Shown here one piece after another: positions 18,692-48,687 of a stretch of 64,000 bases of DNA; within the stretch, counting starts at the first letter, position 1; every line of letters begins with the position of its first letter. Under the pieces are notes generated by a model that saw only the letters and a program-made list of their open reading frames with translations, did not search any database and had not been told where the DNA came from. The DNA is taken from the IMG/VR virus record IMGVR_UViG_3300037067_024509, positions 18,724-82,723 of that record. One strand, given 5' to 3'. Position numbers and translations under genes: made by a program. The stretch is from a virus (taxonomy: Duplodnaviria > Caudoviricetes).

Positions 18692-19129
18692 ATGAAAAAA
18701 GAAATTAAAAGTATAGAAATTAAAACTGTTAATGATATTAGGAAAGCTTTAATTCCATTTATTAATAATTCTAAAAAAGATGATATTATTATTTCTGGAG
18801 AATTTGCATGGAACGATGAAGAAAATAATCAAAAAATGAAAACTAAATTTTCTGTTGATAATAAAAATATAGGTCTTAAGGATTTATTAATTGAGGGATT
18901 TGATCAAGTTAAGCAGCAAGAAAATACATGGAATATGTTACATGATGCTTTAGATGATGATGAATTTTCTGTAACATTGCCACGTATTGATATAGATAAT
19001 TTTCATATGCCTGTTGATAGATTGATAAAGAGCAGATTAGGTGGTAAACGTAAAGGACATTCTGTTGTTTGGAATATTAATAATCATGTATATGAGTTTA
19101 ACCCATATACATGTGAGTTTAAGGAATAA
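18692..19129 (+). CDS. Hypothetical protein
   Basis: 145-aa ORF within the operon. Confidence 0.6.
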   Translation: MKKEIKSIEIKTVNDIRKALIPFINNSKKDDIIISGEFAWNDEENNQKMKTKFSVDNKNIGLKDLLIEGFDQVKQQENTWNMLHDALDDDEFSVTLPRIDIDNFHMPVDRLIKSRLGGKRKGHSVVWNINNHVYEFNPYTCEFKE

Positions 19130-39585: not shown

Positions 39586-42516
39586 ATGGCCACTTTCCTT
39601 TCGCCGGCAATTTTTGTAAACGAAATCAATCTTTCTGCTTTGCCAGCGGGTTCTTCTGGAATAATTCCTGCTTTTATTGGTACTGCTAAAAAAGGATTAC
39701 TTAATAGAGTTTATACTATAACTAATGCTCAGCAATTTGTTGATGCTTTTGGTGAGCCATTTGCTGAAAGCTTCCTTGGTTATGCAGTTCTTGCTTATAT
39801 GGAAGAGGGTAATCTTGCTTATGTTATGAGAGTTGGTGTTGAATGTGAACCTGATCAGCCAGTTGAACTTTCAAGTATTTGTGTTGATACATCTGGCAAT
39901 AAAGAAAGTGGATGGGGCCGTATTCCACTTTTCAGTGGTATAGATTTTGGTAGAATTACTACACGTGTTGCTGGTGATAATGGTTGGTCATTCCATGATG
40001 CTTCATCTACATTCGTTGAATTCAATGATGCATTAGTTGATGTTGGTACTGCAGGACCTACTTCTGCTTCGTTAACATTTACCGGAACTGATTATGTTGG
40101 TTCAATAAGTGATAGTTTCATTCTTTTAATAACTGGTAAGCCAACCACAACTGGTGGTCCTCCTATGAATGGAGCTACCTATAGTGTTATAAGATCATCT
40201 GATGGCGCTGTAGTTGGTACTGGCGTAATTCAGGAGAGTTCAACTCCTGGAACCAGTGAAGATATTACTTTAACTGATGGTATAGTTATTCAAATAGTTA
40301 TGGGATCTGGTGGTGCTGAACAAACTCTTGATGTAAATGATTCGTTCAGATTCTCGGTTGAGCCTAATAACCGTAATTTCTGTTTCAGAATTGATAATGA
40401 AGATGTTTCTAATGTTAATATTTATACAATGCCAATAGCTGATTATGCTACTGCTGAAGATTTTGCTAATGCAGTAAATGCTATTTCTGGTATGTCATCA
40501 GAAAGTTATTCTGCTGTAGCAAATGATGACGATACTGTTACTTTCATGAGTAAAATTGCTGGTGAAATGATCCAGCTTTGGAATTATGAGGATGGTACTG
40601 GTACTACGACTGTTCCGCAATATCCTGCTGAAGCATTTGCTATTGAAATAGGTCAAAGTCTTTATGCGTTCGATATTCCTCGTTCCAATTTGATTGGACT
40701 TGAAACTGGTACATTTGATGTCTCAAGTATCAATAATATTGTCACGATTGAGATGAATGATGTTAATATTACTCAGTTCACTGCTACATTACCTGTTGGT
40801 ATTGATCTTACTGCTTCAACAATTGCATCGTCAATAAATGCTGCTGCTACTGTACTTGGAGATACTTTAGTAAGGTCATTTGCTCTTGCTATTCCTGGTG
40901 GTGAACAAGTAGTTGTAATAGAATCAACTGATGTTCATAAGCTTGGCACTGTCAAGATGGTTGCCAATAGTTCGCATCCTAAGACGATGAAATTTGCTGA
41001 GACTGTTGGTATTGCATATCCATACACTGAATCATATCGTGGATATCGTGACCTGCGTACTGCTCTTCCTGTTGGTGGTGAAATAGATTCACAGATACCT
41101 CTGTCGTGCGAACAGTATGCTGGTGGTGATGTAACAAAAGCTGCTCAGTGTGCACTTGATAGTAGCTATTACCAAAATATAGTTGGTTGGTTTGTTGCTA
41201 CATCACCTGGAACATGGGTTGATGGATATAAACTTGGAATAGATATTTATAAAGGATCAAATGTTCCAGCTAATCGTTTTGAAGTTACATTATATGATAC
41301 CAATGGTATTGTACTGACAAGAATACAGGATGTATCATTTGATAAGAATGATACTAACTACATTGGTACTCTTATCAATCCTACTACTAATCCTAGTAGT
41401 AGTTCAACAAATATCAATGGAAATGAATATCTGAACTGGATTGAACGTCCTTCATATTTGAATAATGATTTGAATGATCTTAACACATATGAAGTTCGTC
41501 AGCCATCACAATTTGCATCTCGTGAATTTGATGGGCAGGCTAATGGTATTCCTGCTGATCCAATATATTCAACTGAACTTGATCGGGCAATAATTGGTAA
41601 TCCTGCCGATTATACTGGTATTTATAAGTTCTCAAATCCTGAGACTTGGGATATTTCATTATTGATTACTCCTGGATTCAGCAGCGGTGCTGTTATTACT
41701 ACTGCTTTGTCAGTTTGTACTCAACGTGGTGATTGCTTCTACATAGTTGATCCTCCGTTTGGACTTACTGCTCAACAGGTTGTTGATTGGCATAATGGTC
41801 TTCTCTTTAGTGATTTGAGTGTGGCTCTTGATAGCAGCTATGGTGGTTTGTACCATCCTTGGGTACAGGTCTTTGATCAGTATAATGGTGGGAATATTTG
41901 GATTCCGCCTTCGGGCCATGTTGCTTCGGTCTTTGCTCGTACTGATCGTGTATCTGAAATGTGGTTTGCTCCTGCTGGTCTGAATCGTGGTCAGTTCATG
42001 ACTGCACTTGATGTCGAGACTGAGCATACACGTGGTCAACGTGATTTGATGTATGGTTATGGTAATGCTGTTAACCCAATTATTAAATATCCTGAACGTG
42101 GAATTTACATTTGGGGTCAGAGAACATTACAGCGTGCGAATACTGCTCTTGATCGTATAAATGTTCGTATGCTCTTGATTGCTATCAAGAAAGCTCTTGC
42201 TGGTACTCAGGGCTTGCTCAATGATTATCTCTTTGAGCAAAACGATGCGATAACTCGTCAGCTTGTTAAGAGCGCTATTGATAATTATATGTCAGATGTT
42301 GCTGCTCGTCGTGGTATTACTGCTTGGAGTACCATATGTGATGAGTCAAATAACACTGCTATAAGAATTGATAGAAATGAATTATGGGTTGCAGTCCTCA
42401 TTAAGCCAACACGTACTATTGAGTTCGTATGCTTAAATCTTGGCTTACTCCGTAGTGACCAGAGCTTTGTTTCGGAAGAAGTGCTTGCTGCTGTTGGTGT
42501 GACCACGGCTGCCTAA
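39586..42516 (+). CDS. Contractile tail sheath protein (gp18-like)
   Basis: FLSPAIFVNE, IPPSGHVA, WFAPAG.NRG, VNPI, WGQRTL, RINVRML. Confidence 0.95.
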   Translation: MATFLSPAIFVNEINLSALPAGSSGIIPAFIGTAKKGLLNRVYTITNAQQFVDAFGEPFAESFLGYAVLAYMEEGNLAYVMRVGVECEPDQPVELSSICVDTSGNKESGWGRIPLFSGIDFGRITTRVAGDNGWSFHDASSTFVEFNDALVDVGTAGPTSASLTFTGTDYVGSISDSFILLITGKPTTTGGPPMNGATYSVIRSSDGAVVGTGVIQESSTPGTSEDITLTDGIVIQIVMGSGGAEQTLDVNDSFRFSVEPNNRNFCFRIDNEDVSNVNIYTMPIADYATAEDFANAVNAISGMSSESYSAVANDDDTVTFMSKIAGEMIQLWNYEDGTGTTTVPQYPAEAFAIEIGQSLYAFDIPRSNLIGLETGTFDVSSINNIVTIEMNDVNITQFTATLPVGIDLTASTIASSINAAATVLGDTLVRSFALAIPGGEQVVVIESTDVHKLGTVKMVANSSHPKTMKFAETVGIAYPYTESYRGYRDLRTALPVGGEIDSQIPLSCEQYAGGDVTKAAQCALDSSYYQNIVGWFVATSPGTWVDGYKLGIDIYKGSNVPANRFEVTLYDTNGIVLTRIQDVSFDKNDTNYIGTLINPTTNPSSSSTNINGNEYLNWIERPSYLNNDLNDLNTYEVRQPSQFASREFDGQANGIPADPIYSTELDRAIIGNPADYTGIYKFSNPETWDISLLITPGFSSGAVITTALSVCTQRGDCFYIVDPPFGLTAQQVVDWHNGLLFSDLSVALDSSYGGLYHPWVQVFDQYNGGNIWIPPSGHVASVFARTDRVSEMWFAPAGLNRGQFMTALDVETEHTRGQRDLMYGYGNAVNPIIKYPERGIYIWGQRTLQRANTALDRINVRMLLIAIKKALAGTQGLLNDYLFEQNDAITRQLVKSAIDNYMSDVAARRGITAWSTICDESNNTAIRIDRNELWVAVLIKPTRTIEFVCLNLGLLRSDQSFVSEEVLAAVGVTTAA

Positions 42517-42543: not shown

Positions 42544-43047
42544 ATGCCCGGATTTAAGATTAATAATGGTGGCGGTGATGCTGATGCTAAGGTTGAATCA
42601 AACCGTAAGCATCGTTGGAAGTTTAGTTTGGAATCTATTCAGCAAGAATGTGTTTATTTAGCTAGTGCTCAACGTCCGCATTTTATTGCTGATGAAGTTA
42701 TAATGCACCATGACCAGGAACAGGTATATTTTGCTGGTAAGCATCATTGGGATCCAATAACATTGGTATTCTATGATGTGTACGGTGGTAATGCGGATAC
42801 TAGTAGTAAAATATGGAATTGGATTAATGAATGTATTAAAATTAATGAAGCATCAGCTAATACTCCTAGTTCCTATAAGAAAAATGCTGATCTTCAAATG
42901 ACAAATGCTGCTGGCGCTGTTAGAGAAACATGGAAGATATATAATACTTGGGCAATAGACGCAAATTTCAATGATCTTGATTATAGCGTTAGTGAAATTG
43001 CAACTATTGACGTTAGTATGAAATATGATAGAGCTAGTAGACAGTAA
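42544..43047 (+). CDS. Tail tube protein (gp19-like)
   Basis: RKHRW, YFAGK..WDPITL.FYD, W...N...DLDYS...MKYDRA. Confidence 0.9.
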   Translation: MPGFKINNGGGDADAKVESNRKHRWKFSLESIQQECVYLASAQRPHFIADEVIMHHDQEQVYFAGKHHWDPITLVFYDVYGGNADTSSKIWNWINECIKINEASANTPSSYKKNADLQMTNAAGAVRETWKIYNTWAIDANFNDLDYSVSEIATIDVSMKYDRASRQ

Positions 43048-43104: not shown

Positions 43105-44673
43105 ATGATAGACTGGCAAAAGACTAATGAATTATTTGGAATATTAGAAAATACAGTAACTTCAAAAGATAAAATAGTTGTAATTTGTAATAGTTGTAAA
43201 TCAATACGTAATATATCATATATTACATATAAAAATCAAATAAGATTAACTGGTAGTGATGATTGTCAATCATGTAAAGGTAAGGCTAATAGAATAAAAT
43301 ATTCAGATTCATATAAATTAAGTGATGAAAATAGGTCAAAATCATTATCATTAACAATGAAGAAAAAATGGGAAAATGAACAATATAAAAATGAACAAAT
43401 AAATATATTTAATTCTGACATTAATAAAGAAAAATTGTCGAATGCATTAAAGGATAAATGGAAAGATGAAAATTATAAAAATAAAATAATTTCATCTATT
43501 AGATATAATTGGAATGATGAAGAATATAAAAATAAAATGAAGATTATACATGATAGTAAAGAGTTTAAGGTAAAATCAAAACCAAAATTGTCAAAAGAAC
43601 AGTTATTAAAATTAAAAAATGGTGTAAAAGAAAAATGGAAAGATAAAGATTATAAAAATATTCAATCATTATCTAGAATAGGTAAAATTACTAGTGATAA
43701 AACTAAAAAGAAATTACATGATATAATGTTATCAAAATGGCAAGAACATGAATATAAAACAAATGTTTGTATTGGAAGAGAAAAAATTAAAGGTAATGAA
43801 TCATCAATAGAAATTATTTTATATAGTATATTGGATGATCTTGGATTAAAATATATTAAGCAATTTAGAATTGGTTTTTATTTATTTGATTGTTTTTTAC
43901 CTGATTATAATATTTTAATTGAATGTAATGGTGACTATTGGCATTCATTAAATAAAGCGATTAAAAATGATAAAACTAAATCTTCATATATTATTAATAA
44001 TTTTCCGCAATATAAATTATACACAATATGGGAACATGAATTTAAATGTAAGGATAAAATAATTGAATTAATTAAATATTGGACTGGTGTTAATATTGAT
44101 TTGATTGATTTTGAATTTAATAATTTAATTATTAAAGATATTAGTTTGAAGGACGCTAAATTATTTGTTGATAAATATCATTACTCTGGAACTATTGGCA
44201 ATACTGTATATAGGTTTGGTTGCTATCTTGGCAATGAATTGATAGCTTTGTGTAATTTTGGTAATACTACTAGAAATGAATCTGCTACTAGATTAAATAT
44301 TAAGTTTTGTGAACTTCTTGAATTGACTAGATTTTGTATTCACCCAAAATATCAAAAGAAGAATTTTGCATCATGGTTTATTAGTAGATGTATTAATGAT
44401 ATTAAACATTTAAATAAATATAAATGTTTAATATCATTTGCTGATAATACCTATAATCATGATGGTATTATTTATAAAGCATCAAATTGGAAAATAGATG
44501 GTATTGTTGATCCTTCTTACTGGTATGTTGATACTAATGGTTATGTCATGCATAAGAAAACTTTATGGAATCATGCAACTCAGATGAAAATGTCCGAGAA
44601 TGAATTTGCAAATAAATATGGATATATTAAAGTTATTGGTAAGGAGAAAATTAGATATATTTATTGGTTATAA
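43105..44673 (+). CDS. Free-standing endonuclease C: Zn ribbon + basic helical repeats + Vsr/DUF559-like nuclease + Mom-like GNAT domain
   Basis: SSIE...QFRIG.YLFD...IECNGDYWH; YHYSG, ELTRF, ISFAD...HDGIIYKASNW. Confidence 0.8.
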   Translation: MIDWQKTNELFGILENTVTSKDKIVVICNSCKSIRNISYITYKNQIRLTGSDDCQSCKGKANRIKYSDSYKLSDENRSKSLSLTMKKKWENEQYKNEQINIFNSDINKEKLSNALKDKWKDENYKNKIISSIRYNWNDEEYKNKMKIIHDSKEFKVKSKPKLSKEQLLKLKNGVKEKWKDKDYKNIQSLSRIGKITSDKTKKKLHDIMLSKWQEHEYKTNVCIGREKIKGNESSIEIILYSILDDLGLKYIKQFRIGFYLFDCFLPDYNILIECNGDYWHSLNKAIKNDKTKSSYIINNFPQYKLYTIWEHEFKCKDKIIELIKYWTGVNIDLIDFEFNNLIIKDISLKDAKLFVDKYHYSGTIGNTVYRFGCYLGNELIALCNFGNTTRNESATRLNIKFCELLELTRFCIHPKYQKKNFASWFISRCINDIKHLNKYKCLISFADNTYNHDGIIYKASNWKIDGIVDPSYWYVDTNGYVMHKKTLWNHATQMKMSENEFANKYGYIKVIGKEKIRYIYWL

Positions 44674-44719: not shown

Positions 44720-45652
44720 ATGGCCGACAAAGATAGTCTTCCTGAGGCTGTGAAAGAAAATGTTGCTAGAGTATTTTCAAATAAGGAATCTGACGCTTTA
44801 GATAATATTCTGAGCCAAGAAGATGATTATTTCATGCCATGGGAGGATGTCGTTCTTCCTAGTAAGGGTGTTTATTATGATAATTTAATGCCTGATGGTA
44901 TTATTAAAGTTAAACCTATGGGCATAGATGTCGATAAGATGATGGCTAATCAGAGAATAGTTGCTAGTGGTGAATTATTGAATAAGATTATTGAAGCATG
45001 CGTTAAACTTCCTGATGGAATGACTGTTAATGATTTACTGGCAGGTGATCAATATTTCTTATTATACTATTTAAGAGGTATTACACATGGTAATGATTAT
45101 GAATTCGTAAGTGATTGTCCATCGTGTGGTACTAAGAGCACATACGACTATAATCTTTCTGATTTGTCTAAGACTATAAAAGGTCCAAATCCAGATTATC
45201 CAGTTGAGCCTATGGAAGTTGAATTACCATATATTAGTGAGAAAACTAAGAGTTCTGTTTCAGCAATGGTTAGGCTTTTACGTGTTAAAGATATGAGGGA
45301 CATGGTTAGAGGAAATGTTGTTATTGATCCTATTAAAAAAGGTAAAGCTAGATCGCGTGGTCAATCAAATGGTATTTCTAAGCAGAGTGCTGATGATATT
45401 TATACTAAGAATATTACAACTGCTGTTATTGGATTTAAAGTTGACGGTAAAGTATTTAGCGATGATAGAAAGGATAAATTAATTGAAAAGTTGCATCAGA
45501 AAGATACTGTTACTATTCGTGAATTCATTGATTCAATAACTCCTGGAATTGATACTTCTGTAGATGTAACATGTCAAAATAATGAATGTAATCGGGACTA
45601 CTCTATAAGCCTCCCCTTTGGGGAAAACTTTTTTCGTCCATCTAAGAAGTGA
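44720..45652 (+). CDS. Baseplate hub/tail assembly chaperone (gp26-like)
   Basis: LPSKGVYY, VKPM, GDQYFLLYYLRGIT.G..Y, CPSC, PGID...C...C. Confidence 0.8.
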   Translation: MADKDSLPEAVKENVARVFSNKESDALDNILSQEDDYFMPWEDVVLPSKGVYYDNLMPDGIIKVKPMGIDVDKMMANQRIVASGELLNKIIEACVKLPDGMTVNDLLAGDQYFLLYYLRGITHGNDYEFVSDCPSCGTKSTYDYNLSDLSKTIKGPNPDYPVEPMEVELPYISEKTKSSVSAMVRLLRVKDMRDMVRGNVVIDPIKKGKARSRGQSNGISKQSADDIYTKNITTAVIGFKVDGKVFSDDRKDKLIEKLHQKDTVTIREFIDSITPGIDTSVDVTCQNNECNRDYSISLPFGENFFRPSKK

Positions 45653-45854
45653 ATCCCTAGAGTCACAGTATTGGGCGATATGGGAGCATATATTTATACT
45701 TAAGGAATATTGTGACTTTAGTTTACAAGAATTAAAATTAATGACTGGTGAAGAAAGAACGTGGTATATTGAGAGATATAATAAGGAGCAAGAAAAGAGA
45801 CAGGCAGAGGAAAAGAAGGCTTATAGAAGATCTTCACCTAATGTTAGACGATAA
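45618..45854 (+). CDS. gp51-like small chaperone ORF, probably reached by frameshift
   Basis: SLESQY...F.L...FSLQEL..M...ERTWY; no in-frame ATG/GTG or SD before the conserved part. Confidence 0.7.
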
Positions 45855-47857
45855 TGAATATATTAGAATTTATTGATAAGGCTAATTATATTCATAATAA
45901 TAAATATAATTATTCAATAGTTAACTATATAAATAATAAAATTAAAGTTAAAATTATTTGTAAAATTCATGGTGAATTTGAGCAGACACCAAATAGTCAT
46001 CTTTGTGGTAGTGGTTGTCCAAAATGCTACATTAATAATATGATGTTATCACAACAAGAATTTATTGATAAAGCTATAAAGGTTCATGGTAATAAATATA
46101 ATTATTCTAAAGTTGATTATAATGGTAGTCATAATAAAGTTAAAATTATTTGTCCAATTCATGGAGAATTTGAACAAATTCCTACTGGTCATCTTTGTGG
46201 TAAAGGGTGTCAAAAATGTAAGATTGATAAGATAACATTGTCACAACAAGAATTTATTGATAAAGCTATAAAGGTTCATGGTGATAAATATGATTATTCT
46301 AAAGCTAATTATAAATGTAGTGATTATAAAGTTAAAATTATTTGTAAAATTCATGGTGAATTTGAGCAGACGCCAAATAGTCATCTTCGTGGTAAAGGAT
46401 GTCCAAAATGTGGTATTGAAAAATTATCTTCAACTGGACAAAGATTTATTGATAGGGCCAAAAAAGTTCATGGTGATAAGTACGATTATTCTAAAGTTAA
46501 TTATACTCGTCATCATAATAAAGTTAAAATTATTTGTCCGATTCATGGAGAATTTGAACAGACACCATTTGGTCATTTAAATGGTCAGGGATGTAAAAAA
46601 TGTGCTATTGATAATATGATATTATCGGAACAAGAATTTATTGATAAAGCTAAGAAAGTTCATGGTGATAAATATAATTATTCTAAAGTTAATTGTAAAT
46701 ATGTTCATAATAAAGTTAAAATTATTTGTCCAATTCATGGAGAATTTGAACAAAGAACATCTAGCCATTTAGATGGCAGTGGATGTAAAAAGTGTGCTAT
46801 TGAAAAATCTTCTTTATCAAAACAAGAATTTATTGATAGGGTTATAAAGATTCATGATAATAAATATGACTATTCAAAAGCTAATTATATTGGTTGTCAT
46901 AACAAGATTAAAATTGTATGTCCTGTTCATGGAGAATTTGAACAAATAGCTGGCTATCATTTAATTGGTCGTGGTTGTAAAAAATGTGGTAATGAAGTTA
47001 CTATTTCTAAATCACATCAAGAAATAATTGATTTTATTAAAGAAGATAAAAATATAAATGATCGAGAAATTATAAAGCCATATGAATTAGATATTTTTAT
47101 TCCTTCTAAAAATATCGCAATTGAATTTAACGGTGTATACTGGCATAGTTATGGTGAATTGGAAACTAAAAAAGAACGTTATAAACATTATGATAAAACA
47201 TCTACCTGTTTTGATAAAGGAATTAAATTAATTCAAATTTTTGAAGATGAGTGGATTAACAAAAAAGATATTATTAAATCTATTATTAATTCTAAATTAG
47301 GAATTAATAATAGATTATTTGCTCGTGAATGTGAAATTAAAGAATTAAATAATAAAGAATTTAATATTTTTTGTAATAATAATCATATTCAGGGCAAATT
47401 AAACTCAATAATTAAATTAGGATTAATTTATAACAATAAAATAGTTTGTATAATGGGTTTTAATAGGCATAAAAAATATAGTTATGAATGTACTAGATTT
47501 TGTAATATGTTAAATATTAATGTAATTGGTGGTGCGAGCAAATTATTTAAATATTTTATTAATAAATATAAACCAAATTCTGTTTTGTCTTATGCAGATA
47601 GAAGATATAGTAATGGTAATTTATATGAAAAACTTGGATTTAAATTGGCTGGAATTACTAATCCAGGCTATTTTTATATTAAAGGTATATGTAAATATTC
47701 ACGTAAACAATTTCAAAAATATAAATTAAAAAAGAAATTAGACAATTTTAATAATGATTTGTCAGAAGCACAGAATATGTTTAATAATGGTTATCGTAGA
47801 TTATGGGATGCTGGACATTGGAAATTTGTTTATAATTTTGGAAAATATATTATATGA
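45854..47857 (+). CDS. Free-standing endonuclease D: 6 Zn-finger repeats + PD-(D/E)xK nuclease + GNAT-like domain
   Basis: Six CxxHGEFEQ...GCxKC units; YELDIFIP...[10 protein letters not shown]; RRLWDAGHW. Confidence 0.82.
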
Positions 47858-48687
47858 GTGATAGATTAAGTGCTGCTGCTGGTGGAGTTGTTGCTTTAAA
47901 TGCTGCATTTTTAAAAAATGGTATTCCATCAGATCCATATGCTATACGTGCAGTAAGAATATATCGTCAATCTGTACGTGAAGAAAATAAAGTAATGGAA
48001 ATTTTGTTACCATATCCAGATTCGACAGATTATCAATCAGTATTTAATTCTCTTTTTCAAAGAGTACCTTCAACACCAGATTTAACTGGTGTATGTGGGA
48101 CAGAAACCCCTCCAGTATACATTCCAGGATCATATATATTAAATTTAGAATTGCCTTGTAGTTTAAGCCCTGGTGTTTACTTTGATGTTTGGTGTTTTAT
48201 TGGCGATTTAGCATGTTATCCAAACCCAAGTGATATTAATTGGGATGATGAATCATTATGGACATGTCAATGTAACAAATTTTATGTTGGAAGTGAAAAT
48301 GGTTGGACTATTGATGATAATTTAACTAATATTAGACTTGGATTTGAACCTCTTGATTCTAAATTTTTACAGCCAGAGAAGAGATCATTAGAAATAGGTA
48401 TGATGCCATTACCCTTGTATGACTATGACTACAAAAAAATGCAGGCGATATTACCTACGTTAAGAGCTACTATTTCAATAGAGACTCAGAATTGTGAAAC
48501 AATAATTAATGATGTTCCAATGAGTATTGGACTTAGATCTGGATCGTATAGATCTAATCCATATGTTTTAAAATATCTTGTTGATACTACTAAATTTTTA
48601 AAGGGAACATATAAGTATAAAGTGGTTGTTTCTCTTCCAAATGGTGAGACTAGATCATCTGATTATTTTTATCTTACGGTGCGTTAA
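47854..48687 (+). CDS. Hypothetical, probably virion structural protein
   Basis: 277-aa beta-rich ORF in the late region. Confidence 0.6.

Follow-up and report, generated by a model that had tools for sequence, protein, structure and literature searches.

A putative tail assembly chaperone (TAC) gene of an uncultured myophage probably encodes two proteins, the longer of which would be made by a programmed +1 ribosomal slip at the sequence UUU_UUU_CGU close to the end of the open-reading frame (ORF), a reading to which we assign a probability of roughly 0.85. The gene, ORF1, lies in a 64,000 nucleotide (nt) stretch of virus DNA (Duplodnaviria; Caudoviricetes), positions 18,724 to 82,723 of the 82.7 kb IMG/VR virus record IMGVR_UViG_3300037067_024509, which we refer to as the window. 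The record has an estimated completeness of 23%, and the window is a fragment of a large myophage genome with DNA polymerase, baseplate wedge, sheath and tube genes and several homing endonucleases. A first-pass annotation, made from the sequence alone, had proposed that ORF1 and a downstream ORF are fused by slippage at this point, and the end of ORF1, the slip site and the open +1 frame were all present where it had placed them (Table 1).

In the standard frame, ORF1 ends with the codons GAA AAC, the slip site TTT TTT CGT and then CCA TCT AAG AAG TGA, the stop lying 7 codons on, which gives a short form of 310 amino acids (aa). The +1 frame opens after the TAA at 45606–45608 and stays open from 45609 to the TAA at 45852–45854; because both frames are open only between 45609 and 45652, any change from one to the other must fall in that interval. 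The tetranucleotide TTTC occurs in frame once in ORF1, at the slip site, and decoding it as a single step gives a 377 aa product with the junction that the first-pass annotation had derived from a P-site slip of UUU to UUC at 45632–45635. As that annotation had also stated, no ATG, GTG or Shine–Dalgarno (SD) sequence precedes the conserved segment of the +1 frame in the window; the sole canonical start is a TTG at 45618, the sequence upstream of it (CCTCCCC) is not SD-like, and the first ATG of the frame lies 37 codons past the slip site. The −1 frame of the window is closed after 4 codons, and the site lacks the X_XXY_YYZ arrangement of −1 shifts.

Table 1 Features at and around the proposed frameshift site, in window coordinates
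Feature	Position	Strand	Remarks
Sheath gene	39586–42516		Upstream of the tube gene
Tube gene	42544–43047		Downstream of the sheath gene
Endonuclease gene with Mom-family domain	43105–44673		Homing-endonuclease type, inserted between the tube gene and ORF1
ORF1, gp26-like tail/hub assembly chaperone	44720–45652	+	310 aa, short form by standard decoding; TGA at 45650–45652
Overlap, 0 and +1 frames both open	45609–45652	+	Between the +1-frame TAA at 45606–45608 and the 0-frame TGA at 45650–45652
Hairpin TCCCC-TTT-GGGGA	45612–45624	+	Directly 5′ of the T run (AAAC, then T6); −8.4 kcal/mol for the 50-nt segment
Recoding signal C TTT TTT CGT CC	45628–45639	+	Near-invariant in 66 loci; proposed P-site tRNA-Phe slip from UUU 45632–45634 to UUC 45633–45635
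Slip site TTT TTT CGT	45629–45637	+	Within the end of ORF1
+1-frame extension	45636–45854	+	72 codons and TAA (45852–45854); conserved C-terminal domain, gp51-tail-like, candidate analogue of the lambda 'T' part
Homing endonuclease	45854–47857	+	667 aa; repeated treble-clef zinc-finger units; downstream of the extension
277 aa protein	47854–48687		Downstream of the chaperone locus; unmatched in Pfam and PHROG

The site is conserved well beyond the window. A scan of IMG/VR with ORF1 returned 80 loci sharing 32–73% identity, and with 3 loci truncated before the site and 1 with a disrupted ORF left out of the site count, 77 were evaluable. All 77 carry TT[T/C] TTT CGN near the gene end followed by an open +1 frame, the combination that the first-pass annotation had proposed to check in homologs, with the 0-frame stop 4–13 codons past the site, the +1 ORF continuing for 64–107 further codons and the −1 frame soon closed. 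Codon statistics were taken over 65 non-redundant genes with 29–62% GC, in which the slip codon was TTT in every gene, the preceding Phe codon was TTT in 61 (the other four being TTC TTT C variants), and the Arg codon after the slip codon was CGT, CGC or CGG in all 65 and AGR in none. Elsewhere in the same genes TTT makes up 49% of Phe codons (13% in the GC-rich subset) and CGN 57% of Arg codons. Across 66 loci there is little or no variation at signal positions 0–7 (TTTTTTCG) and 9–10 (CC), and the two Phe wobble positions have an information content of 1.6 and 2.0 bits, compared with 0.05–0.3 bits at neighbouring wobble positions.

Downstream of the site, it is the +1 frame that is under protein-level selection. 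The variable (wobble) positions are in phase 2 (mod 3) as far as the site and in phase 0 (mod 3) beyond it, therefore the coding frame changes exactly there. Differences within the clade of the window occur downstream at the third positions of the +1 frame; for example, those between the window and relative L002 number 9, 2 and 20 by codon position, which amounts to 15 synonymous and 9 non-synonymous codons when read in the +1 frame, against 3 and 24 when read in the 0 frame. Alignment of 60 distinct extensions gave the consensus ..E.EW..LMEQ.F.LK..G.LSLFEQ..MTAEER.WW..RL.KE.. and then a variable tail that is basic or rich in Pro; the conserved residues are F22, L24, E34, M38, E41, R43 and W45, with E34 invariant and F22 and L24 nearly so. 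A search of 1.84 billion representative proteins with the extension profile produced 265 matches, and no in-frame fusion was present among the best 150 of them, which were small ORFs of 37–133 aa with the exception of two long proteins (P0160 and P0198); the latter were rejected as fusions, as they contain many matched stretches and look unrelated to one. Neither blastn with the locus nor tblastn with the extension found a match in the phage collection, and the ORF1 protein alone reached distant cultured relatives. In one relative (L078) the gp26-like ORF is broken mid-gene, with the remainder in another frame; this interruption, apparently an assembly error or a pseudogene, seems to have no connection with the conserved site.

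UUU_C and a small +1 ORF are also retained in the distant relatives. Phage HSE3 and Streptococcus phage GXN1 have TTC TTT CGT with the same +1 architecture, SP-15 has TTT TTT CAC, immuto has TTT CTT (in full, AGC TTT CTT) and LR756508 has TTT CTA (AAC TTT CTA). In Bacillus phages HSE3 and SP-15 and Flavobacterium phage immuto the genes run in the order sheath, tube, 'baseplate hub' (the ORF1 family), small hypothetical ORF and tape measure, and this small hypothetical ORF is the +1 extension. A different arrangement was found in three jumbo phages, Agrobacterium phage Atu_ph07 (L083), Sinorhizobium phage Phosso (L086) and the huge-phage assembly LR756511 (L087), where the U-run is one base out of register, such that CAT TTT TTC or GGT TTT TTC gives a canonical T_TTT_TTC heptamer, and the extension domain is in the −1 frame. 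This suggests that the Phe-Phe U-run is used in both directions within one protein family, and the −1 sister lineages would provide a natural comparison of two mechanisms on the same run.

In the mechanism we propose, most ribosomes would read TTT TTT CGT in the standard frame, stop 7 codons on and release the 310 aa chaperone, whilst a fraction would slip +1 with tRNA-Phe on the second UUU in the P site. Its GAA anticodon would re-pair with the overlapping UUC (45633–45635), a better match, after which GUC would be decoded in the +1 frame and 72 residues added to give the 377 aa long form; the upstream UUU would allow the E-site tRNA-Phe to re-pair too. The Arg codon would never be AGR because the slip needs a C after UUU. 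If they behave like lambda gpG/gpGT and T4 gp26/gp51, the two forms would work jointly in a ratio set by the slip frequency, both chaperoning the tape-measure/hub complex, with the extension as a second binding surface. Bacterial ribosomes are known to be prone to +1 shifting at UUU_Ynn, and the influenza PA-X cassette is built around UUU_CGU (PMC5009743). The proposed slip resembles those at the Yersinia YopN-TyeA UUU_Y sites and in PA-X, where a P-site UUU is followed by a pyrimidine and tRNA-Phe re-pairs to UUC. In influenza A PA-X (UCC_UUU_CGU) the same UUU_CGU occupies the P and A sites as in the window and there is likewise no strong RNA structure, whereas the window has UUU and not UCC in the E site, the hosts are bacterial, with no need for CGU and CGC to be slow, and the A-site codon varies (CAC, CUU, CUA).

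The membership of ORF1 in the gp26/gp51 family is well defined. It matches PF12322 (T4_baseplate) with 47.3 bits (cut-off 24.5 bits) over profile positions 9–218 of 219, and phrog_150 ('baseplate hub') with an E-value of 3.7e-17, the same two models that are matched by T4 gp26 and gp51. At least 194 homologs of 280–364 aa were found in public metagenomes, many on contigs of 140–408 kb, and the Phe-Phe near the C terminus is invariant in their alignment. When an AlphaFold2 model of ORF1 (predicted local distance difference test, pLDDT, 83; predicted template modelling score, pTM, 0.76) was searched against BFVD, 64 matches at E ≤ 0.001 to baseplate hub proteins were returned, the top match being the SP-15 baseplate hub subunit (E 1e-18, template modelling score 0.61/0.75). 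Foldseek found no match to the model in the PDB at E ≤ 0.001. VIA-align, which is independent of Foldseek, ranked first among 48,161 chains 3klu, YqbN (Z 5.7; 80 aligned residues, root-mean-square deviation (rmsd) 2.9), which we take to belong to the XkdN-like TAC family, followed by 2ob9, the HK97 TAC (Z 5.5; rmsd 4.4 over 88 aligned residues), and a related protein, 3fgx (Z 5.2), with the next match at Z 3.7. With the modelled structure as the query, it is unlikely that three chaperone-type chains would top this list by coincidence. Four cysteines (C133, C136, C285 and C290) are invariant in the homolog alignment, in two distant CxxC-like pairs, and this suggests that the gp26-like chaperone may carry a structural zinc site; zinc-ribbon proteins are present among the weak fold matches.

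Several observations weigh against a programmed +1 slip in a tail chaperone gene, or reduce what the evidence for it is worth. The log10 probabilities of the codon bias under independence, approximately −25 for TTT and −17 for CGN, are overstated, as the sequences are related. ORF1 homologs have about 0.65 further in-frame TTT_C per gene, so that UUU_C by itself does not single out the site (a C comes next after 13% of TTT codons and 28% of TTC codons, a suggestive avoidance that is confounded by GC content), and Phe-Phe is also conserved as a protein motif, part of the conservation thus being at the amino acid level. The VIA-align matches to TACs cover only model residues ~23–133 at a modest Z below 6, and the gene order of the window is sheath, tube, endonuclease and ORF1, with the tape-measure gene not adjacent. 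CGN makes up 48–93% of Arg codons elsewhere in these genes and is not rare in them, which gives no support to CGN as a rare-codon stimulator, and distant relatives have CAC, CUU or CUA in the A site. Of the analogy to PA-X drawn by the first-pass annotation, the identical UUU_CGU and the retained UUU_C stand, whereas a rare CGN codon is not supported; what is constrained is more plausibly a UUU with a C after it. Slip efficiency may also be low, given that neither a conserved RNA structure nor an SD-like element emerged: 60-nt windows downstream had a mean z of −0.98 compared with −0.46 in controls, which is not convincing as RNA structure, RNAalifold predicted no pairs in 33 sequences, Rfam had no match at the locus, and no SD-like element is constrained upstream, where wobble positions are free. 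In lambda G/GT the slip efficiency is low. The hairpin directly upstream of the T run scores as terminator-like together with T6; in the alignment it is specific to the window and not kept in relatives, and it is probably incidental, although it could have some influence on slipping or bring about a degree of termination.

The split between the two ORFs has also to be set against explanations that involve no +1 slip of the ribosome. Homopolymers are prone to sequencing errors, and a single-base indel in the T run could have split one gene, either as a genuine break or as an assembly error; yet the same split is present in 77 of 77 independent assemblies from many samples as well as in finished cultured phage genomes, an in-frame version is absent from the best 150 of the 265 matches, and, because an identical copy of the 310 aa ORF1 is present on 3 contigs, its frame break is not a sequencing error. 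We therefore give this explanation next to no weight, the comparative data having effectively refuted it. Public gene calls treat the downstream ORF as a protein of 37–133 aa, often started at a conserved internal Met (that 37 codons in is nearly invariant), and GenBank annotates it as a small hypothetical protein. A separate small protein would have to be started at TTG 45618, at such an internal Met or by termination–reinitiation, and we consider this highly improbable. No start or SD sequence is conserved, several loci having none until +26 to +37 (there is no start before +36 in L006 and L007, and none before +28 in L057 and L069), and the window has one non-SD TTG at −4, which arises incidentally from the Pro-Phe-Gly codons of the 0 frame and occurs in the nearest relatives only. 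Independent initiation at this TTG or at an ATG in homologs, which the first-pass annotation had named as the finding that would overturn its proposal, is thus not borne out. Residues conserved at the protein level (E34, F22 and L24) lie upstream of any Met, loci with long overlaps have conserved residues upstream of the 0-frame stop, which argues against termination–reinitiation, and the invariant synonymous sites of the Phe-Phe-Arg codons would be left unexplained.

The remaining alternatives concern how the frame is changed. A −2 ribosomal shift on U6, in which the P-site tRNA-Phe moves from UUU to the UUU two bases back, would reach the same frame with an extra Phe at the junction, and the uninterrupted T6 in 61 of the 65 genes permits perfect re-pairing of this kind; the tail chaperone genes of phage Mu use a −2 frameshift. 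However, the other four of the 65 loci, as well as HSE3, GXN1, immuto and LR756508, cannot re-pair in this way and yet keep the architecture, and the invariant C past the run is required for a +1 shift (to UUC) but not for −2, which makes the −2 shift improbable in our view. Transcriptional slippage, where the polymerase drops one U or adds two on T6 such that a subset of the mRNA encodes the fusion, would suit a site that is a homopolymer run, and stuttering could in principle yield both the +1 outcome here and the −1 outcome in Atu_ph07, Phosso and LR756511 on the same run. Transcriptional slippage sites are usually runs of 8 or more, with the run as the sole conserved feature whatever its codon register. 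T6 is shorter than the runs known to slip efficiently (review, PMC5009743), and members with only T3 (TTC TTT C, AGC TTT CTT and AAC TTT CTA) nevertheless keep the architecture. The run keeps to a strictly conserved codon register, a property of consequence for a ribosome but not for a polymerase, and the −1 members carry a canonical X_XXY_YYZ heptamer in the correct register; slippage by the polymerase is accordingly very unlikely. From these comparisons we infer that it is the ribosome that slips, and by +1.

T4 gp26 and gp51 are separate, divergently transcribed genes without a frameshift, whereas the lineage of the window has one gene and a recoding site. T4 gp26 (208 aa) ends in EFFELL past the homologous Phe-Phe, and its codons TTC TTT GAG cannot shift +1; T4 gp51 (249 aa) has ~41 further C-terminal residues past the Phe-Phe. 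In phrog_150, T4 gp26 covers positions 14–235 and T4 gp51 13–280, whilst ORF1 of the window covers 16–233 and the frameshift product 16–273. The extension profile was placed by hhalign on gp51 residues 222–254, a weak match (E 0.024), and a hidden Markov model (HMM) widened with eight distant extensions matched gp51-family C termini (~215–253) at E 0.003–0.02, real sequences giving 110 rows below E 1 and reversed or shuffled controls 0; single-sequence hhalign of ORF1 and the extension against T4 gp26 and gp51 was weak. The extension aligns with the gp51 tail over S-x5-M-x-A/P-E-R...L-x-K-E/D, although the homology is weak, and the 'gp51-like' label of the first-pass annotation is moderately supported by the phrog_150 coverage, hhalign and the widened HMM. 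PF12322 genes number exactly one in each of four essentially complete 341–408 kb relatives and two in T4. In T4, gp51 resembles a long form encoded in frame and gp26 a short form, and the alignments and gene counts together suggest that one gene with two products here may be equivalent to two genes in T4. T4 gp26 and gp51 are hub assembly chaperones, of which gp51 is essential for assembly and absent from the virion (PMC3004832). Phage 0305phi8-36 has a two-gene chaperone (PMC2147016), where the G/GT frameshift is replaced by two paralogous genes sharing a G-like domain, as we propose for T4; it belongs to another protein family, and the window uses the frameshift form.

Similarly to lambda G/GT, the locus consists of two overlapping ORFs past the tube gene, the second without its own start; in cultured relatives the pair stands directly before the tape-measure gene, and the N-terminal domain of ORF1 is predicted to have a TAC-like fold (HK97 TAC, YqbN). 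Lambda gpG/gpGT and the conserved TAC frameshift of long-tailed phages were reportedly described by Levin in 1993 and by Xu, Hendrix and Duda in 2004. The locus differs from lambda in the direction and signal of the shift, which is +1 at UUU_UUU_CGN where that of lambda is −1 on a heptamer of the G_GGA_AAG type, and in its protein, as ORF1, at 310 aa with a Cys4 site, is approximately twice the size of gpG and matches Pfam T4_baseplate rather than Phage_TAC. In the window the adjacent tape-measure gene is also missing, whilst relatives without endonuclease insertions have the order sheath, tube, ORF1 homolog and then a conserved ~280 aa protein. The link to G/GT that the first-pass annotation had drawn is supported by the synteny in cultured relatives and the predicted TAC-like N-terminal fold; in the window, ORF1 comes after sheath and tube but has no tape-measure gene behind it. 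We would place at about even odds that the gp26/gp51 family is the counterpart of lambda G/GT in T4-like and jumbo myophages, with an ancestral single gene that slipped on the Phe-Phe U-run, by +1 at UUU_C in most members and by −1 at U_UUU_UUC in those like Atu_ph07, and with two genes in T4.

Endonuclease-type genes flank ORF1 on both sides, and both are absent from the syntenic region of L002. The TAA of the extension overlaps the ATG of the 667 aa homing endonuclease in the sequence TAATG (45852–45856), and the endonuclease may be translationally coupled to the rarely used +1 frame, keeping its expression low. In L002, which has no endonuclease insertion, a gene of ~280 aa begins 16 nt after the extension. 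The position of the 277 aa protein is conserved (279–280 aa in L002 and L013), and a further component of tail or hub assembly may be encoded there.

Programmed frameshifts in tail chaperones are a familiar phenomenon, and the G/GT frameshift is among the most conserved recoding events in tailed phages; what sets the present case apart is the +1 direction, the signal UUU_UUU_CGY_CC, the protein family and the deep conservation. A prior report of a frameshift in the gp26/gp51 family was not found in the literature searched, although subscription-only papers may hold one. In public records the extension appears as a separate small hypothetical protein or is unannotated, and it should instead be given as a joined coding sequence with ribosomal slippage. 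The site would represent a phylogenetically deep bacterial case of +1 frameshifting at UUU_C that involves neither a stop codon nor RNA structure. The G-T frameshift has been described as conserved in long-tailed phages 'except T4' (PMC5009743). Our comparisons suggest that the T4 gp26/gp51 family does carry such a frameshift, in several cultured phages as well as in uncultured jumbo phages that form a very large clade, and the roles of gp26 and gp51 thereby become directly testable.

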